In this document: piece by piece, positions 4,699-54,363 of the stretch
How positions within the stretch are numbered: position 1 is the stretch's first letter
Layout: every line of letters starts with the position of its first letter
Program-made: the position numbers and the translations under genes
Origin: Marsupella aquatica
Taxonomy: Eukaryota; Plantae; Marchantiophyta
DNA length: 64,000 bases
Reading direction: 5' to 3'
NCBI GenBank assembly: GCA_973895155.1
Contig: OZ316896.1
Location: 4,593,925-4,657,924 of the forward strand
The notes under the pieces: model-generated
Seen by the model: the letters and a program-made list of their open reading frames with translations, nothing else
Told to the model about the DNA's origin: nothing
Databases searched by the model: none

Positions 4699-6541
4699 CT
4701 ATATGGATGTTTAGTGCCATGCGCTGCCAAAGAAGTTCTGGAATCTCGTCGAGAAACCACTGTGATTGAAAAGCTTACAAAGTGGAGTGGCGATATACAG
4801 AGTACAGCTTTTGGTGAAGGCCTCTAAGGGGCAAACTGTCTGCTAAGGTAGAGTACTCCTTTTTAGTGAGGGCGCTAAAAGGCCAAGTGTTGTGAACGTG
4901 GTGGTGCGTTTCAAGTCCATCTAAATTTCTGGCAAGACTTGGGGTTCTCAGGTAGAGGTCTCTTAGAGAGGACCTCAAGCCGTCGGCGTTTCAGTGCAAT
5001 GACTGAATCAGCAATTGTTTAGATTGAGTTAGATTCGAGTCAACTCAACTTAAAAACAATTGCATGAAAAATATTCCGCAGAAAAAATATTACAAAGTTG
5101 TGCCCTTAATTAAGAGTGATTTATTTCTCCTTTGGTTAGTGACGGGTGCTGCGAATGCAAGAATACCCATGGAGATGGGAGTATTCTTGCACAAGGACGT
5201 TGTAAGTTTGTGCAATCATTTTTGGATCCAGGTTTGAAAGGAAGGGTCTTGAATGTTGAGTAGGACTTGCATGAACTGAGATCGCATCATGCATACTTGT
5301 TATTCCCTTTTGATTTAGTATTCCGAAGGCGAACTGACCAAATTTCCAATGAAGTGATCAGTCCGAGACCTGGCGAGGTATCTTTGTTAAAACGCAATTG
5401 GGACGGAAGATGAACAAATTGAGATCAACAACGTCCATCCTGCGCTGGATGTAATTAAATGATGGTCTGCTGTTACCAGGGCGGATCGTTGGAATTCTAA
5501 ATTTTCGTGAACTGACGAAAAACGCACTCGCCATACGTACGCACCATGACCTCCGCCCGCGTCAGAGTTGACTGTGTCCTGCAGTCAACCTTTTTGCTGA
5601 GACTGGGTGAGCTTTGCAATCACAATTTGAGACTAAAAAGATCCACAAAAGCAAAAATTTGAAACTGGAATTTGGACTTCAGAGTGTACTCAGATGCAAG
5701 TCGAGTGCCCGAACACTGAAAATCTTCAGAAATGATCGATGCAAAGTGCAGAGAAAAAACTAGAAAATTAGTTCATCATCTCATCCAGTTGAGGAAACTA
5801 TAACGAATTCTAAAATGGGTGAGGGTGGCTTTACAAGCCTTGGGGGCAGCTTGAGTGTTTTCTTACCAAAGGTAATCTATCAGCCATGTAACATACTAAA
5901 AATAGTGCACGTAGGCTGAAAGAGAGTTTGGGGGACAGGTTGATAATTAAGCTCAGTTTCGGGGATAGGTTAGTAAACAGCTGCTCAATGTATTGTAAAG
6001 CTAACTTTAGCAAAAGGTGTTAGGATAATATGCCAGGACACAAGTTGGGGCCCCACTACAAGTAAAGGTCACATAGTGTTTGGCTAGGGCCCTTCTTGTT
6101 GTGACAAGAGAAGATCCCATGAGGGAAATGTGGGTCCACTTTTAAAGTGAAAGACTCAAAGTAGGAATGGACCAAGAGGCCAGATGAAGAGACGTCCAAA
6201 AGAGGTGGTCTAAAATATGGGACAAAGACTGTGCTCCGTACAGGCAAAACTTGGGCCCCACTCCATTTGATATAGGATCAACAACACTTTAGAAGGAAAC
6301 TGCCCACAACATTTTGTAAAGTAAATAGCAGTTGTATCTCTCCTATGAATGACCCTGACCAAATCTTGGAGACCAGAGTTTTCTTTGAAAATGCCCACAA
6401 AGTATTGTGAAGGCACCCTGACATTCTTCTCCTTGCCACACACGTTGATTAGAGTACATATCAAACTAAACTACACTAGAAGAACCCAAATGCGAGTGGT
6501 TGTGTTCATTTGGATGTGTTAGGCATTAGGTTTAGAGTTAT

Positions 6542-6940
6542 GACTGTATCCATAGTTGGGGCTAACTTTAGTCACTAACTTGGTTAGGTTAGTCATGCTA
6601 CACACTATATACTCAAGTAGTTTTTGCTTGGACTGTAGCCATAGTTAGGGCTAACCGTAGCCACAGACTTGGCTAGTTTAGTCATGCTGCACATTATATC
6701 CTTAAGTAATGTTCGCTTGGATAGTTGGAACTTGGGCTCATTGTTACAGAACCAGTTAAGAAATGACTAACTTGTATTGCAAACTTGGTATGTCCGACAT
6801 ACCTAGAATGCAGTAACTTTGCTTTTCCTCCACTATACTTTGTTTGACACTTTTTAGTGTTGCCATTTTGGACCCTAGAATGTAGTAACTTTTGCTTTTC
6901 CTCCACTATACTTTGTTTGACACTTTTTAGTGTTGCCATT
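6542..6940. repeat. Two local tandem duplications (~89 bp x2 and ~72 bp x2)
   Basis: gactgta(t/g)ccatagtt(g/a)gggctaac...gtcatgct at ~6542 and ~6631; cctagaatg(c/t)agtaacttt...ctccactatactttgtttgacactttttagtgttgccatt at ~6802 and ~6874. Confidence 0.75.
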
Positions 6941-7037
6941 ATGGGCTTCTTCTGACTTTCCTTCATTGTACTTCGTTTTGTTCCTTTTCATAAGGTTCTT
7001 TTCGTAACCTGGTACTTTTCTCACTTTATGTATAGGA

Positions 7038-7182
7038 TAATCAGGCTTTAGTCGCCTGTTACCAGGGAGTAACGGGGCGACCAAGTTACGACCGACCCGC
7101 GACCGGCGGAAGCCGGGAGCGTGTCGGGAGTAACTTGTGAGCCCCGGTTAATCCCGGTAACAGGGGTGCTAAATCCTGATTA
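7038..7182. mobile_element. 145-bp mini-unit bounded by inverted repeats related to the ends of the adjacent tyrosine-recombinase element
   Basis: Left arm 7038-7063 taatcaggctttagtcgcctgttacc; reverse complement of right arm 7156-7182 is taatcaggatttagcacccctgttacc. The core is GC-rich with several GTAAC/GTTAC motifs. Confidence 0.6.
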
Positions 7183-7292
7183 ATTAACGTGCGTAATCAG
7201 GTTTTAGTCTGCAGTTTACCAGCAATCACCAGTGCAGCCAATGGGAGCGGCGCATCAAACATAAATACAATGCAAAGCTGATGAAGGTGCTC

Positions 7293-7577
7293 ATTCGACG
7301 GATTGCACTTGCGGGGGAGGGCGCTAGAGCTACTGAGCTTTGCTCTGATCGCGTGTTGTTGATGGCGTTGATCCTCTGTGATCTTTAATTTTTTGTTGCT
7401 ATGGGATGTTGCCATTCAAATCAATTGGATTTCTGACGAAGACGCTTATTCGACGGATTCAACTTTTGCTTTCTTGGGAGGGCGCGGGAGCTACTGATTT
7501 ATGCTCTGATTTTTGTTGATGGCGTTAATGTTGAGCTGTGATTCTTTGCTGTGGGATGCTGTCATTCAAACCAATTC
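7293..7577. repeat. Diverged ~155-bp direct repeat (2 copies) in the 5' region of the YR element
   Basis: attcgacggatt...gggagggcgc..gagctactga..tgctctgat..gttgatggcgtt...gggatg.tg.cattcaaa.caatt at ~7293 and ~7448. Confidence 0.7.
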
Positions 7578-7862
7578 AATGGCGCGGTTGTGTTTTCTTT
7601 ATTTTGAAATTTCTTATCCAGGGATTAGTTTGCACGCAAGTGGACAGGCGCTGCTCATTGATCCTCTGTGTGTGACAGGATTTCAAACGGACGAGCGGGG
7701 AAATCAGCAAGGACAACTTACGTTGCGTTCAAGATGGACAGGTCCTTTATACATGCGGAATGTTCCTTGCATTTCGGTTTAGAGGTCTTTGCTATGACGG
7801 ACCTTGATAGTTTATATCCGCTGACCTCATTTTCAATAATCACTGCATCTTTGCAAGTCGAG

Positions 7863-10122
7863 ATGACAGAATGCCAGGGGGCTGTAATTGGAGTGAGTCC
7901 CGAAGATGGAGAGGAAGACGAGAATGACTTTTTATTTTTTGATGAAATTGAGGACCTTCAGCTGCCTAGTCTAGAAAGTATTGTTGATGATTCGTCTGTG
8001 TGCAATACTCTTAGTAATTTTCCTCATGCTGAGAGCGAGGACGATGCTCCTGTTGCTTGTGAAGTTCCTGGTAGTCATCCTGTTCATGTGGCCATAGATA
8101 ATGTCGGACCTTAGGGGGAAGTGTCATCTTTGGAAGTTACCATACCAGGCTTAAGGGCAGTTCCAGATAAGACGCTTCATGATGCTGGTAAAGGTGAGGA
8201 GAGGCAAGCTTCAGAACGTAACGATCAGTGGGCTCTGAAACGAGCAAAATCTCTTCGGGCAGCTAAGGGGTGGGATATGTCTGTATCCCTCGGCGACCTA
8301 TCATTGCAACTCCTGGATGAGCTATTCAGCGATTTGTTTAGTAGGGCAGTGAAAGTGAATGGCCAAGATTACCCCAGTGCTACCTTGATGAACATGTGCA
8401 ATGGATTCAACCGGTTAATCAAACGGTCAAGTGAACTTAGATCTCTTAGAGGGGAAGGGAATCTAATCGACACAACAACATTTAACATTAAAACACGTAT
8501 GGTCTTGCGGGCTGCTATCAAGAAAGCTTCTCGAGAAGGCAAAAATAAGAAACGGAAGAAGGTGTGTACAATGTTATTTCTGTGGCTTTTGTGTTTCTTT
8601 GTGTTTGAATTTATTAGTGTTCAAGGTTGACGTTATTCATTGTTTGTTTATGTAATGCAGGTGGAGACCATTACGGAGGAGATGGAGCAAGCAATACTAG
8701 CCGACATTGATCACCAGATTAGTAGTGCACATGGCTGCCAGAAACGTCTGGCATTTTACTTCTTGTGTCGTCTAGGGATCCGGGGTGGTAAAGAGCTCTG
8801 GCTCTTGCAGAGGAATGACATACGCGTGGAGAGTACGAAAGAATACGTGCGATAATGGCCCCTGTAAATTTCTGTATTTGTTCCACCCATGTTTCCGTCA
8901 TATGGCTGAAATAATGTCCTCAACCCTTGTCGCAGCTGTAGACGGGGGACCTGCGTAATCTTTCAACAATAGTCAGTAATTGCTAATCTTTTGAGAGTTT
9001 TTTTGATTTACAGATTCGAAGAAAGAGAATCAAAGAATAATAGTATGACATTGGACCGATATTCAGAACACCAATTTCGTAACGCTTTCCACAGCTTCGA
9101 GGCTGATTTCATTCTTTGTGTGAAACAATATCTACGTCATATGGCTCCGGCCCAGGAATGCAAGAAGCAAGATCTTTTCATGCAACCTATTACTAACCCT
9201 GCAGGGAACGTCTGGTATAATAAATGCCACAAAGTAGCACAAGATCGCACAGGGCATATGCTCAATAACATGTTACAGCTGGTAGGGCTTCCTAAAGATT
9301 TGTTTACTAATAAGAGTGGTCGGGCGACTCTGATTACGCGTATGGCAGCAAAAGGTGTTCCTGACGAAGTTGGCATGCTTGTGACCGGGCACCACACGAC
9401 TAGTGGATACTTGAGATATGATAGGACCCAAGATCTTAAGCAGGACGCTGCAACCTTAGTGGGATGTAACTCTAACTTGAGTTACGAGAAAGCTCTGACG
9501 GAGGTTTCTAAGCAGTTCTACAGTGAGAAGGTGGCAGGGAGTGGTGTAGCATTGAACCCTCTCATTGATAGAGTCAGTGTACAGCGTAACCTTCAAGTAG
9601 CGATCAGTCCAGAATTGACTAAGGTATGTACTTGTGCATAATGTTTCAGTCATTTCTGTTTGTTGATTTGTGATTTGTTTGTTGATTTGTTTTATGTGCA
9701 CACTCTGATTACAGGATACGGGCCAATCTTCAAAAGCAGATGAGGATGTGGAGATCAAGATCGAAGTTCAAGTTAGTACTATGTACATGTCTTCTCTGGT
9801 TTTTCATTGCCGCTTTTTACTTGCAATCTTGTTTTCAGATGATATAAATTTAACATATGTAAGTTGTTTTTTCTTGCAGAAATCTAAGAGCGTATCAAAT
9901 GATGGGACTATCTTGACAGACGAGCAGAATAAACGTGTTATTGAGTGGAATAGGACGTTTGATGAAGTCGACTATGTTGGGGAATTGAGCAAGAATCCGA
10001 CTCTAGCTGGTTATTTTGCAGCCCAGTCTAAGGCAAAGAGTGTATCGGTGGGGAACAGTTTATGTGGAAACTATAACAATTGCACGATCAATTTCATAGT
10101 GAAAAAGGATGACGATGCTTAG
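7863..10122 (+). pseudogene. Intron-containing tyrosine recombinase of DUF3504/Crypton type, disrupted
   Basis: Exons 7863-8561, 8661-8851, 9014-9623, 9715-9771, 9880-10122. Motifs: KVNGQDYPSATL, LGIRGGKE (catalytic R at 8781), EYVR|FEERESKNN, VWY, FTNKSGRAT (R at 9321), VTGHH (H at 9390), YLRY (Y at 9417), C-terminal GNYNNCTINF. In-frame TAG at 8112-8114 and an apparent GT>AT donor mutation at 8852. Confidence 0.82.
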
Positions 10123-10482
10123 AAGTAGAATAGTAGCAGATTACGTAGTCAATTTTTTAGGATAGTAGAGATTAGACTAAAGTCATGTGCATTTCACTAG
10201 CTGAATCGAACCTTCAGCTGAACAATATGTCGGATGTACTGTTTTTTCGGGTGTAACATTTTCATGGGTTCACATGCCCCGTTCATTTCAAGAAATTGGC
10301 ATTTTACATAATGAAGCTTCTCTCTTCTGTGAATTTTGAATGGAGTCATGGATGTCGGGCATGGATCTCTCTCATGCAGTCGCTAGTATGCTATTGTCAG
10401 CCAGTTGTGTTGAACTATGTAAATAAGAAAATTAAAAACAGAGAATTGCATCAATTGGCTGCTGGAGATGAATGTTGTCGGT

Positions 10483-10699
10483 AGATCACGTAGTTTACCG
10501 TTGCTGGATTATATGTTACTGTAGCTAGATTACAAGTTACCGTCAAGTGATTACAATCTACCGTCCCTAAATTATGGCTTACCGTTGATCTCATCCCCAG
10601 ATTACAGCTTACCGTTGATCCCATCCCCAAATTACAGCTTACCGTTGGTTTCACAAACAGATTACAATGTGACCGTCAATTTGGGGCAAAGATTACAGG
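10483..10699. repeat. Subterminal array of ~9 GATTACAnnTTACCGT-like motifs
   Basis: Units start at 10484, 10507, 10528, 10549, 10570, 10600, 10630, 10660 and 10691 (spacings 23, 21, 21, 21, 30, 30, 30, 31); the last unit is partial. Confidence 0.8.
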
Positions 10700-11071
10700 A
10701 AATAACATATACCACGGAAAAGTAGATACACAGGTAAACTAAAGACTAAACCCTGTTTACGTTGTTTTAATTTACTGTAGGCTTTTCCTCTCCATCGTCG
10801 ACCATAATTAACTTCCAGCGGTATGGGAAACCACAGTCCGTGTAGAAGAATCTACGGCTACAGTATCCCCCGAGAATAAAGAGTTCTGTACCAAGATTGA
10901 AGCCGTCAGATCGTGAGCACAGTCTGGTCGAGTCGTGGAGAGTACAAGCCGTTTGTCGACCCTCAAAACCGTCAAAGATGTTCGCTCCAGTCCTCTTCTT
11001 CCGTCGTTTGAGAGAACAGGATTTCACCATCTCGTTCCTTTTCATCTTCTCTTTCTCGATTTCGTCATCAC

Positions 11072-11178
11072 ACTTTGCATCTCCTTCGTGTCTTCTTGTC
11101 CACTTTATTGAAATTGGAAATCCCACTTTGCATCTCCCTCTTGTCGTCTTGTCCACTTTATTGAAGTTGGAGCTCACT
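11072..11178. repeat. ~54-bp tandem duplication
   Basis: actttgcatctcc...tcttgtccactttattgaa(a/g)ttgga occurs twice. Confidence 0.65.
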
Positions 11179-12642
11179 GTTTCTGCCTTGAAAGATTGAT
11201 GGACTTCCATTTTGGAGCTCATTGGTCTCTTCGTGCCGTACTGACGGTCTAGGTCTACTCTCCGAATTAATGTTTTCTCCAGTCTGTAGTCAAGTTGACC
11301 GATGAAGCGTCATTGAATTCGAGAGTTGTGGGCATACCTTTTTCTTTCTTCCCAGGCCGCCGGCCGCACGTCACATGGATGGCCTACGTTAGTCAGCAAT
11401 ACCACCGCCGGTGACAGGGGAGCATGCTCGTGTCCTTCAATTCAAACCGTTGACCCTACGGATTTTCGAGGGCCTACACCCTCTAATCTGATGTAAGTTA
11501 CCCTACCTCAAGTAGACTGCTCTGTATTATATGAGAGTTAGAAGAGAACTTCAGGGAAAGTATGAAAAATTGATTGGACTGTTTGAAAGTCAACTTCTTA
11601 GGCTTGTGGCTCCGGGCTCAATAGTAAGTTTTCGTCCGTGGTCCCGCTCTCTTACAGTACTATGCTGAAGCCAGGAAAAAGGCGAGGGGGCCTTGAGCTG
11701 CCCTATCAAAAGTTCTTAGTAACAACTTTTTCCTAGTTGCACAATATTTAGGAAGATGTTTCAATTACCTCACTTGTCAAGTCCCGAAATCAGGTCAGTC
11801 AACGAGATTAAAAATTTGAGCGGGATGGTTTTCTTGATTTGTTGCCAGCTTCAGCACTGATGCGAAGGTGAGTTCAGGATACTGATTGGAGTCAGCTCCA
11901 TGCGTTACTGATAAGATCCACCAGTCGAGATTTTCAGTTTACTGCCAACAACGAGCCCGGCGGATGGTCATCCTTCTCTAACAAATTTCTTTCAGCACTG
12001 ACTCAGTTAGCGATCTGGGCTGATAGTAAGTTGCACATTCGTTCGTCGAGATAGGCCACTCCGTAATAAACTTTTTCGAGCTTGTATAAGGCTCACTGTA
12101 GATGTCATCAAAAAATTTTTCAACGATATCGAGGCAGAGGCCATGAATTCTGAATCAGATCAAATACCATCTGAAAAAAAAACATAATTGTACAACTGAC
12201 AGGCGAGTCAATGAAATCTAAAATGATGGACTCCGCTCGAGTAACTTGTCTTTACTCTCGAGGAATTGCCACCTCATTCTCTATGTTCTAATCTAGCAAC
12301 CGAACGACTTGTAAGATCATTCGATCAAATTTAATTTCTTCCATTTGCTCCCTTGCCAAAAAAGTCAGCTCTAAGGCACTGATTTCCAAAACCATCTCGA
12401 AGTTGCTCGTGACCACTCTATGTTTGTTCGAACCTACTCACGGCGAAGTCTAAACAACACAACATTACAAAGATTCTTCACTTTGTTCAGGCAGGTGATT
12501 CGAGGAGGGCCTGCTGGAGAGTTGTCGGACTTCATTGTGTGTTGTAGCCGAGCCAGCATTCTCTTGAAAACGGTGACTCTACGTGCCCACAGGAACCCAG
12601 CTCGTCTCGGACATGACTTGCGTGATACTGTGGTCATCTGGG

Positions 12643-15600
12643 TTAAGATTTGTTGATATTGGGTCGTCTTCCTCCAGAGTCTGGATTGCCGCTACTGCTC
12701 CACACAGTGGTCGAAGTCTGAGAACTGTTCTTCGAGGGGTCGAGTTCAAACAACGAATCTTCAGACCTGGGATGATCCTCACGCAAATCTCCGCTGTATG
12801 CATCAGCGGTATCAATCCCATCCTCAGTCTTGCAATAGGCCCCTTTCCACAACTCCTCCAGCTGAGTTACGACCTCTCCAATTGTTGGCCTTTCGTCCGG
12901 GTTGTCCCGGCAGCACACCAGTGCTAATCTCGTGATGCTGTCCATTGCTCGATGGGAATACGACCCTCTGATCCGGAGATCGACCATCCTCGCCAACGCT
13001 CCCTGATCATAAGCGATGTTCACCTCCCTCACCAAATTCTTTCCATCTGAGATGGGCTGCTCGCCAGTCACCAACACCAGCAGCACCACTCCGAAACTGT
13101 ACACATCGCTCTTGTCAGTGAGCCGATGGGTTTTGAAGTACTCAGGATCCAGATAACCAGGAGTCCCCTTCACCACAGTGGACACATAGCCCACCATGCC
13201 ACCCAAATCTGGCTGTGGAGCCAGCTTAGAAAGACCGAAATCCGCAACTTTAGAATGGAACGATTCATCAATCAAAATATTACTCGCCTTAATATCACGG
13301 TGATATATCGGTGGGTTAGCCTGCGTGTGAAGGTAGTGTATCCCTCTGGCTGAATCGAGAGCGATTTGGAGCCGGGTGAAGAAGGTAAGAGGAACTCTCG
13401 CTGCAGGAGACAAATGCCATAACAGAGAACCATAGGCTACGAATTCATAGACCAGCACCTGCTCGCCCTGGTCATTGCAATAGCCGATCAGAGCAACCAG
13501 ATTTTTATGGTGAACTCGGGACAGCAGCTGGATCTCGGTCTCAAACTCGATAGACCCCTGGTGAGAGCTCGCCTCCGCACGCTTGACAGCAACCTTCTGA
13601 CCATCCTCCAATGTCCCGCTGTACACCTTGCCATATCCCCCCTCGCCTACAAGTCTCTCATCGCTAAAGTTATCAGTGGCCTTCTCGAGCTCTTCCAACG
13701 TAAACTCCTTCACACTGGCCACCTTAATGCCCGAGAAGCTCCTCCTCTTAAAGGTGGACTTCTTCCCTCTATATTTGTGGTCAGATTTCTCGTTCTTTTT
13801 CCGGCTCGAAATCAGCCAGTATTTCAGCATGTAATACATACACACGGTTTTGAGCACCACGAATGTCAGCACTCCTACCACAATACCAACGATTGCTCCC
13901 TTTGATAATCCATTCGACTTCCCTTTTGAAGCCATTGGCAAGAAGGAAAACGAAATCAGGTCATACGGTCCCAAAAGGTTACTGCTCGGGAGCTTCCAAT
14001 TGGCGAAAACGCTGTAGATCCTGGCCGCTTCGCTGCCATCAAACTGTGCTCCAGGGGGGAACAAGAGGATCGTAAAGAGGAGCTTGTAGCCCGGCTGGTA
14101 AACGTAGCTTTGTACCTGGACCTGATTGACGTCCACATTCAATCCAATAGCAAGATAGGCTTGAAGTTGCGGCAGGTAGGGGTCTACCAGATAAAAGCTT
14201 GGACTCGTGAGCTGCCACTGGACGGTGATGGGCACGGCACATCGGCAGTCATTTGGTGAGGATACGCCGGGGACGAGAGCATATGGAACTTTACATGCAG
14301 CAGAGCAAGTGTTCTGGTACGAGGACTCCAACGGAGCGGATATGACTCCTCCAATGTCCATATAGGCAGCAATGTCTCTAGGAACACACAAAACATTGTT
14401 CTGCTGTGAAGCACTGGTGCTGCAGAACGGATTGCCATATAACCAGACCGACGTATTCCCATCTGGGCCCTTCTCACCGAGCAGGTTCGTTGTGTTGGCC
14501 ACGCTGGAAATATAATTTTTCTGGAAGTCGAAAATGGTGGACTGGTGCCCATTGCTACTCAAATTCGAAGGTATCTGGCCGCTGATACGGTTCCCCATCA
14601 GCTCCAAGATCTGCAAAGACAGTAAGGAGCCCAACGACTCTGGAACAGTCCCCGAAAGGCTGTTGTGAGAAAGGTCAACGGTGGTAAGGTTGGGAGACAT
14701 GGTGGAGTTGGTTATGGATCCAGTGAGTGAGTTGTGACTCAAGTCGATCACTGCCAGCGAACTCGATCCACTAAAATCTGGGATGCCTCCCGTCAGATTA
14801 CAGTTCCTCAAACGCAAAGTCACCAAATTCGGCATTGTCCCGAACTCTACCGGAATGGAATCGAAATTGTTGTTATCAAGCTGGACGGCCACCAAGTTTG
14901 GCATGCTGGCAATCTCTACGGGCAAACTCCCTGTAAAGTTATTGCTGTCCAGAAACAAATACTGAATGGTCGTCAGGTTGGTGAGACCCACAGAAATGCC
15001 GCCGTCCAAAGAATTGTTATTCAGCTGGATGTGCTGAACGCTGGCTAGATAAGGATAGGCAAATGTGTCCGGGATTTGCCCAGATAGGTTGTTGTTGTCG
15101 ATTTGAATTCTGATGAGGCTCGGGAGAAAACCCAATTCTCTGGGCAGTGGTCCGCTTAATTGGTTTCCGCTCAGGAGTAAGAAGCTCAGACTTTTCAATT
15201 TGCCAATGGCTACTGGAATGCTCCCTGAGATTTGATTCCACATCACATTCAGATACTTGAGAGCTGACAAGTCTCCAACTTCTGCAGCTAGGCTCCCCTT
15301 CAGATTGAGCTCGAGTAACCTCAGTTCTGTAACGTGTGAGAAGTTGCTGCCCGTGAGGTCGCTGGGGTAGTCCGCTGAGACACAGTACACTCCGACCCAT
15401 CCATCACCACAAGGGTCCCCTCCTCCCCAGTTGCTCAGACTCTTAGAACTGTCAACCACGCTGTTCTTGATAGCCTGGAGAGCAGTAATATCTCCAGGGT
15501 ATGTTGTAGATGACGCAACTCCACATAAGATGGCCAAACTGGAAATCCAGAAGATGTTTTCGATCAATTTCCGATCCGTGAGCACTCCTTTACTACATCC

Positions 15601-15645
15601 TCGTCCTGCCATATTGACGAGTTCAGTCCTGCCACCCCAAAACAT
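12643..15645 (-). CDS. Leucine-rich-repeat receptor-like Ser/Thr kinase, LRR-VIII-1 (At1g06840/HPCA1-like) type, single exon
   Basis: 1000-aa uninterrupted ORF: signal peptide, LRRNT (WGGGDPC..W.GV.C), plant LRRs (LSGxIPxxL), Cys-containing juxtamembrane region (C..PY..VP....CRCAVP), TM GAIVGIVVGVLTFVVL, intact RD kinase (GEGGYG, VAVK, HRDIKASN, DFG, GTPGYLDPEY, SDVYSFGV). Start may be ATG 15645 or 15612. Confidence 0.95.
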   Translation of the reverse strand: MFWGGRTELVNMAGRGCSKGVLTDRKLIENIFWISSLAILCGVASSTTYPGDITALQAIKNSVVDSSKSLSNWGGGDPCGDGWVGVYCVSADYPSDLTGSNFSHVTELRLLELNLKGSLAAEVGDLSALKYLNVMWNQISGSIPVAIGKLKSLSFLLLSGNQLSGPLPRELGFLPSLIRIQIDNNNLSGQIPDTFAYPYLASVQHIQLNNNSLDGGISVGLTNLTTIQYLFLDSNNFTGSLPVEIASMPNLVAVQLDNNNFDSIPVEFGTMPNLVTLRLRNCNLTGGIPDFSGSSSLAVIDLSHNSLTGSITNSTMSPNLTTVDLSHNSLSGTVPESLGSLLSLQILELMGNRISGQIPSNLSSNGHQSTIFDFQKNYISSVANTTNLLGEKGPDGNTSVWLYGNPFCSTSASQQNNVLCVPRDIAAYMDIGGVISAPLESSYQNTCSAACKVPYALVPGVSSPNDCRCAVPITVQWQLTSPSFYLVDPYLPQLQAYLAIGLNVDVNQVQVQSYVYQPGYKLLFTILLFPPGAQFDGSEAARIYSVFANWKLPSSNLLGPYDLISFSFLPMASKGKSNGLSKGAIVGIVVGVLTFVVLKTVCMYYMLKYWLISSRKKNEKSDHKYRGKKSTFKRRSFSGIKVASVKEFTLEELEKATDNFSDERLVGEGGYGKVYSGTLEDGQKVAVKRAEASSHQGSIEFETEIQLLSRVHHKNLVALIGYCNDQGEQVLVYEFVAYGSLLWHLSPAARVPLTFFTRLQIALDSARGIHYLHTQANPPIYHRDIKASNILIDESFHSKVADFGLSKLAPQPDLGGMVGYVSTVVKGTPGYLDPEYFKTHRLTDKSDVYSFGVVLLVLVTGEQPISDGKNLVREVNIAYDQGALARMVDLRIRGSYSHRAMDSITRLALVCCRDNPDERPTIGEVVTQLEELWKGAYCKTEDGIDTADAYSGDLREDHPRSEDSLFELDPSKNSSQTSTTVWSSSGNPDSGGRRPNINKS

Positions 15646-38557: not shown

Positions 38558-38745
38558 CGAAGCGTGTTGGACAGAATCGCGGTACGCTGTACAACAACAG
38601 CGCTCCTGTCCCTGTTGGGCTGATCCGGTACCTTGGACTTCTAAAATGATGCGAAGCGTGTTGGACAGAATCGCGGTACGCTGTACAACAACAGCGCTCC
38701 TGTCCCTGTTGGGCTGATCCGGTACCTTGGACTTCTAAAATGATG
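38558..38745. repeat. Exact 94-bp tandem duplication, with a diverged third copy at ~38941
   Basis: cgaagcgtgttggacagaatcgcggtacgctg...ggacttctaaaatgatg at 38558-38651 and 38652-38745. Confidence 0.9.
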
Positions 38746-50148: not shown

Positions 50149-52329
50149 TCAGGACATACAATCACTCACCTTATGACTGTTGATGAGGAAAATCAGTTTC
50201 TTGTCCAAACCATCGAACTCTGAGATGTTTAATGTTTCAATCCGCTTGCTATTATACAGCCTCTTTAAAATTTGCACCTTGGCAATCTCGAACGGGTCCC
50301 TTGTTTCAGGAGAAAACATTGGCAGCTTAGGTTTAATTTTTCTGTATCGAGCCTTTGTAGTCGGGTAACTTGCATCGAGAGCGTCCGGGAGAGCGTCCAA
50401 AGTCATCGCTTGGGGGCTCTGTAGTCCTACGCTAGTTGGGTGACCTCCCGGGTAACCTACACGGGATTCACTTGCAGTTGTGCCCGCCCAATCATGAACT
50501 GAACTTGAATCTGATTGCAACGGTAGAACAGCCCTAGGTACAGCAACAGGTACCGTGGTTCTGCTGCTAAGGTTAGAATCCCACGTTGCAATGGGAGAGT
50601 CCAGATTCATGGCTTCTTCGCTGTCGTCTAGGCTCATATTGGCATCAGAGAAGTCAGAAATAGGAGATCGAAATTCTTCAGAAACCCTGGCTGGAAAGTA
50701 CTGGCTTGACGGGACCACATTGGATACGATAGCGAAGTCCGATTGCAAGTCAAAGTGTCCTTCCGCACCCTGCACATTCCTCTGAATGAAATCTCCTTTC
50801 TTTACTTCCTCTGCTACTAAGTTATACATCCACTCGTCCTCGCCGTTTGAGAGCTCACTTGGGATTTCTGCACCTACGTTGTTGACAGTGTGGTTGGTCT
50901 GGCGAAGTTTAGAAGCAGACTCACGATTCTCCAAGACAGTACTGTGCTGAGAAGATTTCAAAGTGGCATGTGCCGATGATGACTGTATATAATTGTCACA
51001 GGCATCAAAGAAGTCGGAAATAAGAGATCGCGTCGACTCCCAAACCCGGGCTGGAAAATGTTGGCTTGAAGAAAACACATTAGATACAATAGGGAAGTCC
51101 GGTTGCAAGCCAAAGTGCCCTTCCAAACCCTGCGGACGGGCCTGCGGGTTCCTTGGAATCCAAGCACCATTCTTCACGCCATCTGCTAGTGCTTGACCTA
51201 GCGAGTCCTGGTCTGTGCCGTCTGTGCCGTCTGTGAGGTTGAACTGGTCACTTGGAATTGCCTCTTCAATGTTGCTGTCTGTATGGTTGGTTGCGTGAAC
51301 TTGGGCAGCAGAGTCAGGAATCTCCAAGACAGTACTGTGCTGAGCAGATTTCAAAGGGACATCTGCCGATGATGACCTTATCTGGTTGTCACAGGCAAAG
51401 AAGTCAGAAACAGGCGATCTCGACTCCTCGCAAACCCGGGCTGGAAAATGCTGGGTTGAAGAAATCACATTGAGTACTCGATGGGCCTGCAGATTCCTTG
51501 TAATCCAAGCTCCGTTCCTGATGCCGTCTGCTATTGCTTGACCTAGCGAGTCCTGGTCTGTGCCGTCTGTGAGGTTGATCTTGTCACTCGGAATTTCCTT
51601 TTCCATGTTGCTGTCTGTATCGTAATTGATTGCGTGAACTTCTGTGCCGTCTGTGAGGTTGAACTGGTCACTTGGAATTGCCTCGTCCATGTTGCTGTCT
51701 ATATGGTTGATTGCGTGAACTTGGGCAGCAGGGTCAGGACTCTCCAAGACAGTACTGTGCTGAGCAGATTTCAAACGGAAATCTGCCGATGATGACCTTA
51801 TCTGGTTGTCACAGGCATCAAAGAAGTCAGAAACAGGAGATGTCGACTCCTCGCAAACCCGGGCTGGAAAATGCTGGCTTGAACAAATCACATAATTGAG
51901 TACTCGATGGGCCTGCAGATTCCTTGGAATCCAGGCTCCGTTCCTGACGCCGTTTGCTAGTGCTTGACCTAGCGAGTCCCCTCCCGTGCCGTCCGTGAGG
52001 TTGATCTTGTCACTCGGAATTTCCTTATCCATGTTGCTGTCTGTATGGTAATTGATTGCGTGAACTTCTGTGCCGTCTGTGAGGTTGAACTGGTCACTTG
52101 GAATTGCCTCTTCCATGTTGCTGTCTATATGGTTGATTGCGTGAACTTGAGCAGCAAGGTCAGGACTCTCCAAGACAGTACTGTGCTGAGCAGATTTCAA
52201 ACGGAAATCTGCCGATGATGACCTTATCTGGTTGTCACAGGCATTAAAGAAGTGAATAACAGAAGATCTCGATTCCTCACAAACTCGAGCTGGAAAGTGC
52301 TGGCTTGAAGAAACCACATTCGAGACCAC
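50149..52329 (-). CDS. Uncharacterised acidic Ser/Asp-rich protein built from ~130-140-aa tandem repeats; upstream part (to ~53030) is frameshifted
   Basis: 726-aa ORF with repeated SSQHFPARVCEESxSPVSDFFDACDNQIRSSSADFRLKSAQHSTVLES and INxxDSNMxxxIPSDxxNLTDGT units; basic C-terminal segment and probable donor AAG|GTGAGT near 50170. Degenerate units continue to ~53000. Confidence 0.5.
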   Translation of the reverse strand: MVSNVVSSSQHFPARVCEESRSSVIHFFNACDNQIRSSSADFRLKSAQHSTVLESPDLAAQVHAINHIDSNMEEAIPSDQFNLTDGTEVHAINYHTDSNMDKEIPSDKINLTDGTGGDSLGQALANGVRNGAWIPRNLQAHRVLNYVICSSQHFPARVCEESTSPVSDFFDACDNQIRSSSADFRLKSAQHSTVLESPDPAAQVHAINHIDSNMDEAIPSDQFNLTDGTEVHAINYDTDSNMEKEIPSDKINLTDGTDQDSLGQAIADGIRNGAWITRNLQAHRVLNVISSTQHFPARVCEESRSPVSDFFACDNQIRSSSADVPLKSAQHSTVLEIPDSAAQVHATNHTDSNIEEAIPSDQFNLTDGTDGTDQDSLGQALADGVKNGAWIPRNPQARPQGLEGHFGLQPDFPIVSNVFSSSQHFPARVWESTRSLISDFFDACDNYIQSSSAHATLKSSQHSTVLENRESASKLRQTNHTVNNVGAEIPSELSNGEDEWMYNLVAEEVKKGDFIQRNVQGAEGHFDLQSDFAIVSNVVPSSQYFPARVSEEFRSPISDFSDANMSLDDSEEAMNLDSPIATWDSNLSSRTTVPVAVPRAVLPLQSDSSSVHDWAGTTASESRVGYPGGHPTSVGLQSPQAMTLDALPDALDASYPTTKARYRKIKPKLPMFSPETRDPFEIAKVQILKRLYNSKRIETLNISEFDGLDKKLIFLINSHKVSDCMS

Positions 52330-54363
52330 ATTGAATACCCGACGGGCCTGATTCCTTGGAATCCAAGCTTCGTTCCTGACGCCGTCGATCTGCTAGTGCT
52401 TGACCTAGCGAGTCCCTCCCGTGCCGTCCGTGAGGTTGAACTGGTCACTTCGAATTTCCTCATCCCTGCTACGGCCTGGCCCGCTGCATGATCCGGTAAC
52501 CTCCAACAGATTTATGAATCTCCAAGCCGGTGTCCTGTGCACATTGGATAGTCACATCTGATCGACGACCATGATGACCGTATCTGGTTGTCACGAGCAT
52601 CAGAGACGACGTGAGAGATAGGAGATTCAAATTCTTCAGAAAAATAGGAAGTGTAATTAAGATGGCTCAAAGAGATCTCGTCGGACTCAAGCGAGAAGCC
52701 CAGCGCGCGTATGCTGAACGACTCTTCCACACCCTGCTCTTCTTCATTGGAAACAAAATCCGCACGCGCTTTCCATTCTGCTACTGTTACTTCTCCTACT
52801 AGCGAGTACAGATGTGAGCCTTCTGAGAGATCGAATTCAGCAGCTAACATGTCCAGTTTCGTCTGGGTCTGGTTAGCTTTAACAGCGACGTACTTCTTGA
52901 CTCTCCAAGACCATATGCGGAGCGGACTTCAAAGTCAGATCTGGAGTGGACGACATCTATCTGGCTATCAGTTCCACCAGGTTTTACTTCATCTCTCGAC
53001 AGTCTGTAGACTCGGGCAGTCAGGTGGCGGCCACGATATATTTAATTAGGGTTTACGTTAATGTAGATCGCCGGATGTTGAGTGATTAGTACATGTGAAC
53101 CTTTCAGATAGTTTGCTAACAATCTTCATTTTTAGATGATAATCAATTAGACAAAGATCTTAGGATAGATCGACATCACATGAACCAATTACTAGCAACT
53201 GCCAATTGTCCCTACAATCTCGATCATGCGCTGTCATTTTCTAGCTATCAGCTTAACACTGCGTTAACCCTAAACCCATGAAAAAAACGTCGTTGCCTTA
53301 ACAGTGATCGCCCAAAGATAGATTAATCTAGAAGTTATTACAGTCGATAAAACAGAATCCGATGGAGCAGTGGCCAGCAAATGCTACATAATTACGGGTC
53401 TCGTCCAGATCGACAAGTCTATAGATGCAGCAATGAAGCTATACTTGCACCTGTCGACAATCACACCTTATCAACACCGTTTTGTACTTAGTTGCCAGGT
53501 TGATGGTACGTACAGCCATGCCGCCACTAACTTCGGGCAGCATGCACCTTTCCGCTAGTTGAGGGACGGAGGGTTTATATATTGAATCATGCTTGAAGGA
53601 CGACATTTGTAATAACAATTTGTGAAAGTAAAGATTGGGAAGGAATTGCCTTCGAGCAAATTCGGCAGGCCGAAATACAATCTCACTAACTCTCCTGCCT
53701 CGGCCCAGAAATCTGCTCATTACCATGAGAACTTTACTTCAGCTGTTCTCCACGTCAGTTGCGTTAGGTCTGGTAAGCCATGCCTCCTGGTTAAAAATTC
53801 CAAAGTCTGTTCCAGATCGAGTGATTGCCAGTACTTCTTTTGCCAGTTGGTTTGGGCCTGAACCAGCCGTCACCTCTCGATCCTCAAAATCTGCCACGTG
53901 TTTCAAATTGATTGGTGGGCATTGTTTAGCTCTCCACCTGGGCTTGTCAAATTTAGGGTTTTCGACTTCTAAGTTGCCATGTACCTGATCCGGTGCAATT
54001 TGTCACGTAGTACAGTGTTTGTGTTTATCTTCCCACTGATACTCCACACTTCCTTCCCGTTCTTTCAGCGTATTTAAGGAACAATCAGGTACTATCATCC
54101 GCATATTGCATTCTCGTTCTTGCTGCATGATCCTCGCCCGCTACATTTTGTAGCTGGCTCTCTTCCGTGGCTTGGTGGAGTAGTTGTTAATTTTCAACAC
54201 TATCTCGTTTGTCGTCGCACTGTTATATGTACAGGTTTCGTTTTGTTTTTACTCTCTCTTTCCCATCAGGTAACTACTGCAGTTCTTCTAGGTAGCTATA
54301 TACAGACTCGTTTGGCTTCATTGCTTACTTGGGATCGAAAGCTAAGCAAACCTGAAAATTACA

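Follow-up and report, generated by a model that had tools for sequence, protein, structure and literature searches.

A 3.73-kb Crypton-type transposon of the liverwort Marsupella aquatica with clustered end motifs and a putative internal recombinase site

The window, meaning the whole 64-kb stretch of DNA that was analyzed, carries near its left end a transposing unit of 3,731 bp with one recombinase gene, an imperfect foldback at its left end and four copies of an end motif. The following features were recognized (coordinates of the window):

7028..7031, plus strand: target-side ATGT, the 4-bp crossover sequence or direct repeat in its left copy; the sequence shared by the copies begins about here
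7032..10762, plus strand: whole transposing unit of 3,731 bp, a Crypton-type tyrosine-recombinase DNA transposon, delimited by joints, an empty-site contig and depth steps
7038..7064, plus strand: motif copy L1, outer left arm (motif scan, alignment)
7038..7182, no strand: 145-nt foldback, the "mini-element" of the initial annotation; its arms pair over nearly the full length (repeats I1, I2)
7156..7182, minus strand: motif copy R1, left arm of the inner palindrome (motif scan, alignment)
7169..7207, no strand: inner palindrome; spacer at 7183-7193, 11 nt in the window copy, with ACGT at 7187-7190
7194..7220, plus strand: motif copy L2 (alignment; repeat search, I3)
7263..7585, plus strand: imperfect tandem duplication of about 155 nt, left subterminal, in the upstream region (repeats D2, D3, D5, D13)
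7794..10122, plus strand: recombinase gene of about 622 codons (tblastn of the homologous protein P0001, ORFs, sequence)
7794-8561, 8661-8851, 9014-9623, 9715-9771 and 9880-10122, plus strand: putative exons of this gene, borders placed by visual inspection of the sequence and of the alignment with P0001
10486..10700, plus strand: right subterminal array of 21-30-nt repeats (GATTACA..TTACCGT; repeats D1, D9)
10733..10759, minus strand: motif copy R2, right-end arm (motif scan, alignment, repeat search)
10759..10762, plus strand: terminal ACGT, donor copy of the crossover tetranucleotide (from the sequence and from the empty-site contig, which resumes with TGTTT at 10763)

The left flank of the element (6500-6850 and 6802-6944) is repeated DNA in which units of 89 nt and 73 nt are arranged in tandem, and its contig depth reached about 20,000 in X5, one of the sequencing runs used below. 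The Crypton lies inside another repeat, which explains why the empty site described below is paralogous. On the right, 1.9 kb from the element, an intron-free gene on the minus strand (12643-15645) encodes a leucine-rich-repeat receptor-like kinase of 1000 aa (LRRNT_2, LRR, ALE2_N and Pkinase); LRRNT_2 is a plant domain. Elsewhere in the window, a perfect tandem duplication with a 94-nt unit (100% identity) was located at 38558-38745, and tandem repeats of about 345-426 nt on the minus strand (50600-52650) were found within an ORF of 726 aa (50149-52329), which looks like a repetitive protein-coding gene.

The 14-nt motif TAATCAGGNTTTAG was present without mismatches at 7038-7051 (plus strand), 7169-7182 (minus strand) and 7194-7207 (plus strand), and with one mismatch at 10746-10759 (minus strand). 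Four matches in the 64-kb window compare with 0.09 expected, and none of 100 shuffles reached four; the clustering of end motifs pointed out in the initial annotation is thus real. The four copies can be aligned over about 27 nt (TAAtCAGGnTTTAG..GTT(T)ACC) with 15 invariant columns, and have 19-23 identities per 27-28 positions in pairwise comparisons. The second conserved block of the motif is GTT(T)ACC, and its TTACC part also occurs in the right subterminal array (10486..10700). Together with the preceding CG, L2 (7192-7220) forms a 29-nt inverted repeat with the right end (10733-10761), the two being 86% complementary.

R1 and L2 provide the arms of the inner palindrome, CTAAATCCTGATTA / ATTAACGTGCG / TAATCAGGTTTTAG, the 14-nt arms of which are complementary at 13 of 14 positions, as originally described. 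It is the sole palindrome of its kind in the 64-kb window (14-nt arms, at most one mismatch, spacer of 3-15 nt); with the same settings, nine of ten Markov-simulated sequences contained none and the tenth contained three. The asymmetric 11-bp spacer noted in the initial annotation is correct for the window copy but not for the family: in 11 contigs of other copies (2, 2, 4 and 3 from the four runs) 4 nt are missing at 7179, leaving a spacer of 7 nt (ACGTGCG). The 11-nt spacer results from a private ATTA duplication in the window copy. The layout of tyrosine recombinase core sites of the lox or att type, which had been suggested for the palindrome, is borne out and even improved by the shorter spacer, as 14-nt arms around 7 nt fall within the range of lox, FRT and dif sites (inverted arms of 11-14 bp, spacer of 6-8 bp). 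The 14-nt motif is likely to be the binding arm of the element's recombinase, and the arm-spacer-arm palindrome is likely a recombinase binding site of a kind undescribed for Crypton-class transposons.

Matches to the arm palindrome pattern in metagenome contigs, nine loci in total (L001-L009), were rejected as terminator-like and unrelated to the plant element. All of them are perfect hairpins in AT-rich, bacteria-like DNA, and L002, L003, L004 and L008 are situated directly beside a tRNA-like 3' end.

The foldback (7038-7182), treated as single-stranded DNA, had a folding energy of -56.2 kcal/mol (z = -9.7), a stability that none of 200 shuffles attained. Its arms are identical in 57 of 74 aligned columns, the pairing spanning all of 7038-7182 and not the tips alone, while only its 27-nt tips are in common with the rest of the element. 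An Rfam scan of 6500-11300 gave only a chance-level match (E 0.99), so the foldback is no known RNA.

Other copies of the element were examined via Logan contigs of four public runs (X2-X5), representing two organisms and two studies; a further run, X1, with a word share of 0.12, was left out of the contig comparison. Run X3 lacks coverage of 7200-7247 and of further bins, and X5 has no empty-site contig; neither absence is evidence. At 7024-7039 the depth rises from 11 to 149 in X2, from 62 to 430 in X4 and from 75 to 874 in X5. An X2 unitig of 77 nt (7028-7104, 0 mismatches) has a depth of 64.9 versus 11 in the flank contig, a difference of about 6-fold, and the element contigs have about 4-7 times the depth of the flank contigs, although depth is not a copy number. 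At least five different left flanks were found among the contigs, characterizing the element as multicopy.

The initial annotation had regarded the locus as a 145-bp non-autonomous mini-element and a 3.57-kb autonomous element lying end to end, separately mobile and each capable of being excised, inverted or arrayed in tandem. Both parts indeed have matching inverted ends, the 3.57-kb part is bordered by ACGT on both sides (7187-7190 and 10759-10762), and some contigs end at 7181/7182 (X4 record 21, X5 record 27). However, contig ends at 7177-7183 are explained by the branch at the 4-nt indel, and the mini part, the spacer and the big element are bridged across 7182-7194 in all four runs (X2 records 6-8, X3 records 13-14, X4 record 19, X5 record 29), the junction being present in all examined copies. 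Depths in X5 are balanced along this path: 94.7 + 220.2 (314.9) for the mini part, 310.9 for the junction and 177.9 + 166.2 (344.1) beyond it. The copies part from their flanks only at about 7026-7032 and at 10762/10763. Among the contig rows listed for the four runs we failed to find loose ends at 7182-7194, joints removing the mini or the big part alone, solo minis or big-only copies; the listed contigs of the mini part (7038-7182) all continue into the junction contig, unlike those of an independent MITE-like element. Neither tandem arrays nor inversions, nor circle-junction, excision or inversion joints were seen in the contigs of these runs, which drop rare forms. In the contigs of the four runs a single multicopy unit comprises both the "145-bp mini-element" and the "3.57-kb element", and the reading as two separately mobile elements is improbable. 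Independent mini-units, without which the initial annotation would have turned to a chance local duplication, do not occur among the listed contig rows; that alternative is also wrong, because every examined copy carries the arrangement.

Among the aligned contigs, no variable sites are listed in 7028-7088 or in 7164-7219, compared with 12 in 7089-7163 and 24 in 7220-7390. These variant-free blocks give a hint that the spacer and each of the three left motifs are constrained, and the hint is valid within closer subfamilies only, because diverged contigs differ in the L1 region (6/57 and 5/52 positions in X2 records 3 and 4). Two subfamilies that are about 10% apart downstream (22/231, X5 record 30) have an identical contig over 7164-7219 (X5 record 29). 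The tandem duplication at 7263..7585 varies in length in other copies (joint 7427->7391).

If the inner site is under constraint, this would argue for a present function rather than a mere relic. The foldback and the inner palindrome could in that case be a working part of the transposon, a built-in second recombinase-loading site about 150 bp from its tip, which would supply a second protomer pair or a Holliday-junction-like cruciform for synapsis on targets with 4 bp of homology. The presence of the junction in every copy examined, its identity between the diverged subfamilies, the lack of listed variable sites in 7164-7219 and 7028-7088 and a foldback far more stable than shuffles are in line with such a role. 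Against it, the copies are few (about 4-7-fold flank depth), and a single composite founder explains the layout without selection; the window copy also tolerates a 4-nt insertion in the spacer, though this copy is dead anyway. We regard a working part as conceivable but rather unlikely.

The unit as a whole was delimited by comparison of filled and empty sites. Its copies share 6-10 nt outside the first motif (from 7028-7032) and 3-4 nt past the last one (to 10762/10763), and the inverted repeats are therefore subterminal. Loose contig ends before 7026, 7028, 7029, 7030 and 7032 lead into unlike flanks, and the left flanks of most other copies also finish in ATGT. In run X4 a joint 7031->10776 was found; the corresponding empty-site contig (198 nt, depth 38.2) follows the left flank to 7031 and continues with TGTTTCAGTGTAGGCTTTTCC, which corresponds to the right flank from 10763 onward except for a small indel. 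This empty site reads ...CTTTATGT/TGTTTCAGTGTAGG..., with a single ATGT. The filled site is ..CTTTATGT/ATAGGATAATCAGG....CCTGTTTACGT/TGTTT.. (..TATGT/ATAGGA....TTTACGT/TGTTT), as against ..CTTTATGT/TGTTT.. when empty. The contig has 4 mismatches in 72 flank positions, indicating that the X4 empty site is paralogous or homeologous and no clean allele. A flank contig of X2 with 0 mismatches starts at 10734, from which, given 31-mers, we infer that the shared sequence ends at 10763; the right boundary is deduced from the one X4 empty-site contig together with de Bruijn logic applied to contig ends.

The terminal ACGT, the ATGT outside the left end and the single ATGT of the empty site represent the integration pattern of Cryptons, that is, a short terminal direct repeat (ATGT/ACGT) matching the target. 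Apart from A(C/T)GT, the empty site is without any duplication. Direct repeats of 4-6 bp at Crypton termini are described as recombination substrates in the excerpted text of PMC3212892, and according to excerpts of PMC9977147 the active CryptonF-1_cRei terminates in CACCG and has the target CAYCG. The element studied here resembles the latter in that its terminus, ACGT, nearly matches the target, ATGT.

Cryptons are stated to be without terminal inverted repeats, and animal CryptonA without any terminal repeat, in the excerpted text of Kojima & Jurka 2011 (PMC3212892). Our element departs from this description, having the 29-nt inverted repeat and four motif copies; the absence of terminal inverted repeats describes the known Crypton families and is not a mechanistic requirement. 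The motifs start with TA and have the appearance of classic terminal inverted repeats, which would suit either a DDE cut-and-paste transposon or a MITE of the Stowaway type with TA duplications, carrying a recombinase gene in the manner of MarCry-1_FO, a published fusion of Mariner and Crypton that has TA duplications and inverted repeats of 16 bp (excerpted text of PMC3212892). Such an element is expected to have TA directly at TAATCAGG. However, the inverted repeats are subterminal, the empty site duplicates nothing but A(C/T)GT, no transposase was detected by Pfam in the exons and two homologues, and one gene is encoded between the ends, so that this origin is highly improbable. Target duplications of TA or TAA/TTA were likewise rejected, as the shared sequence reaches past them, and variable coupling sequences next to the inverted repeats, of the Tn916 type, were rejected as ATGTATAGGA outside L1 is common to all copies.

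The recombinase gene region of the element contains GT-AG introns, which, together with the LRRNT_2 domain of the neighboring kinase gene, mark the window as land-plant DNA. In the window copy, a TAG stop codon occupies 8112-8114 and AT replaces the GT donor at 8852-8853, and with this stop codon at 8112 and the lost splice donor at 8852 the copy is dead. All aligned contigs have C at 8112 (CAG) and all four runs have G at 8852; other copies being intact at both positions, live copies may exist. Both inactivating changes are transitions, C>T (TAG for CAG) and G>A (AT for GT), as expected from the decay of methylated DNA.

The largest exon matched P0001, a protein of 711 aa from Calypogeia fissa, with 61% identity (E 1e-68), and P0001 mapped by tblastn to a single locus in the window. 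At E <= 1e-3, P0001 had 561 relatives; the closest ones were from Calypogeia, Marchantia, the moss Ceratodon and Adiantum ferns, and from JGI and Logan contigs. No relative of P0001 was found in viral and prokaryotic genome contigs. A Pfam search with the five exon pieces and the two closest homologues detected no family at E <= 0.1, one weak match having an E value of 0.25. The gathering score of DUF3504 (PF12012) is reached neither by the window exons and P0001 (no match) nor by P0006 (24 bits versus 29.7), and the closest 13 plant proteins fail this cut-off, while 17 of the 33 long relatives scanned pass it, most of them also matching QRICH1 and Phage_integrase. A profile of 48 family members matched human QRICH1 (7e-22) and integrases of bacterial and archaeal origin (3nkh, IntI4, XerA; 3e-5 to 3e-4).

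AlphaFold modeled P0001 confidently over a core at about 210-575 (block pLDDT mostly 85-98), and the model gave 44 matches at E <= 1e-3. The alignment with Tre/Cre covers about 360-380 columns and both domains (best E 2.7e-7, target TM 0.63). This Cre-like fold of the model, together with the profile matches to integrases, upholds the earlier assignment of a tyrosine recombinase to the element. Tyrosine recombinases have the catalytic set R..(K)..HxxR..(H/W)..Y. The motifs GIRGG..EL, SKNN, NKSGRAT and GHH..RYD are kept in the window copy, and by alignment the catalytic positions of the window copy and P0001 would be R (GIRGG), E, K (SKNN), the second R (SGRAT), and H and Y (GHH..RYD). The first His of HxxR is replaced by K in the window copy and by R in P0001, whereas aligned animal relatives have H there; the plant branch accordingly reads N[KR]SGR versus NHSLR in animals (alignment including P0001 and P0006-P0029). 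This K or R of the plant branch resembles the Lys of type IB topoisomerases.

Its homologues and the model show the gene to encode a Cre-like tyrosine recombinase with two domains, belonging to a plant branch within the Crypton/DUF3504 lineage; with respect to CryptonA/DUF3504, the plant proteins appear to be a sister or divergent branch. In keeping with a Crypton, the element has a tyrosine recombinase with one homologous locus and neither a reverse transcriptase nor a DDE transposase, only short ORFs being present elsewhere in it. Among the relatives, a DUF3504-type homologue (P0028/P0156/P0157) was noticed as a single annotated gene in Marchantia polymorpha (MARPO_0141s0031) and M. paleacea, possibly a domesticated Crypton gene in liverworts. 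The Adiantum capillus-veneris gene model P0011 joins PPR repeats with the Crypton recombinase region, which may be a fusion or a gene-model artefact.

On balance, we favor an explanation in which a single Crypton-type transposon of 3.73 kb has the three clustered motifs as the architecture of its left end, the 14-bp motif being a likely binding arm and 7169-7207 a likely internal circle-junction copy that arose by tandem integration, after which the pair was mobile as one unit. On this view, the recombinase would recognize the 14-nt arms; once R2 and L1 had come together, the element would be excised as a circle, the junction of which would read R2-ACGT-ATAGGA-L1, with the right end ..TTTACGT joined to ATAGGATAATCAGG.. 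in the predicted sequence. ATGT targets would receive the element through an exchange of strands at A(C/T)GT. The inner site, R1-ACGTGCG-L2, would be the circle junction of the 3.57-kb part alone (predicted as ..TTTACGTGCGTAATCAGG..) and would record a tandem integration. Its layout is that of a head-to-tail junction, which suggests that a full copy was inserted at the end of a foldback copy: the circle of the full copy would have recombined at the ACGT end of a resident 145-bp foldback copy, and the tandem would then have spread as a single unit via L1 and R2. Of the insertion of the element at its own end sequence, as proposed in the initial annotation, the head-to-tail geometry and the ACGT on both sides of the 3.57-kb part are retained, but not the two separately scattered elements. 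Within one circle the inner site and the outer junction would not recombine together, because their spacers differ. A(C/T)GT, the position of the chromosomal joints, is also present in the inner spacer (7187-7190), and ACGT is offset by one base relative to R1 as compared with R2. In the reconstructed outer junction the arms are 9-10 nt apart, a wider gap than the 6-8 nt usual for tyrosine recombinase core sites.

The element is like Cryptons (CryptonA/DUF3504, Glomhoppers, CryptonF-1_cRei) in that a tyrosine recombinase, encoded with introns, is its sole gene and in being multicopy; as in CryptonA/DUF3504, its protein is related to QRICH1/DUF3504 proteins. It is distinguished from CryptonA/DUF3504 by the land-plant host, by a window protein and P0001 that stay below the DUF3504 threshold and by K/R at the first His of HxxR. 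Unlike the Cryptons described in the excerpted sources, it has subterminal inverted arms of 27-29 nt, a 145-nt foldback and an internal site of arm, 7 bp and arm. For Glomhoppers, fungal DUF3504 elements, boundaries and repeats could not be found according to excerpts of PMC13465315. A literature search returned no Cryptons described in liverworts, mosses or ferns (Repbase reports, subscription papers and supplementary lists lying outside its scope), and none with arm-spacer-arm sites (Repbase reports, subscription papers and supplements such as Additional file 1 of PMC3212892, which may bear on termini, lying outside its scope).

With Cre/loxP, FLP/FRT and Xer/dif the inner site shares two inverted arms of 13-14 bp and, in the other copies, an asymmetric 7-bp spacer, and the P0001 model, standing for the encoded protein, matches Cre over both domains. 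In contrast to these systems, the chromosomal joints are at A(C/T)GT at the arm edge and not between two sites, and the putative site is located inside a transposon and adjoins a foldback. The split direct repeats of DIRS, Ngaro and VIPER elements are similar in that an internal stretch repeats the sequence of the joined ends (L1..R1-L2....R2 resembling A1..B1-A2..B2), but our element has no reverse transcriptase, its repeats are 14-27 nt long and mutually inverted, and its internal junction is at the left end. Tandem integration of prophages or integrative elements at their own att site offers another parallel, as in the inner site two units are joined in an attP-like arrangement, with the difference that the first unit is here a geneless foldback and that the composite has since spread as one unit. 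The imperfect 145-nt foldback is like integron attC hairpins in form only.

To our knowledge, the way in which Cryptons are recognized and cut by their own recombinases is not known. In the present element the ends could be placed with a precision of a few bases, the crossover tetranucleotide can be recognized and candidate arms occur in canonical geometry, which makes the question of recognition directly testable. In its strongest form, the interpretation is that a complete, conserved 14-7-14 lox-like site lies beside its own Cre-like recombinase as the first site defined for DUF3504/CryptonA, a branch in which the ends of elements had eluded delimitation, with the foldback-palindrome module as a built-in second synapsis partner through which the full tetramer would be self-assembled on 4-bp targets; we put this forward tentatively, considering it doubtful. 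According to these findings, bryophyte-like land plants harbor recently mobile elements of the DUF3504/Crypton lineage, the relatives of which occur in liverworts, mosses and ferns. Provided that the site works, the element would offer a plant-native pair of recombinase and site, and if the built-in synapsis module is true, this would be a self-contained eukaryotic recombinase-site pair native to plants.
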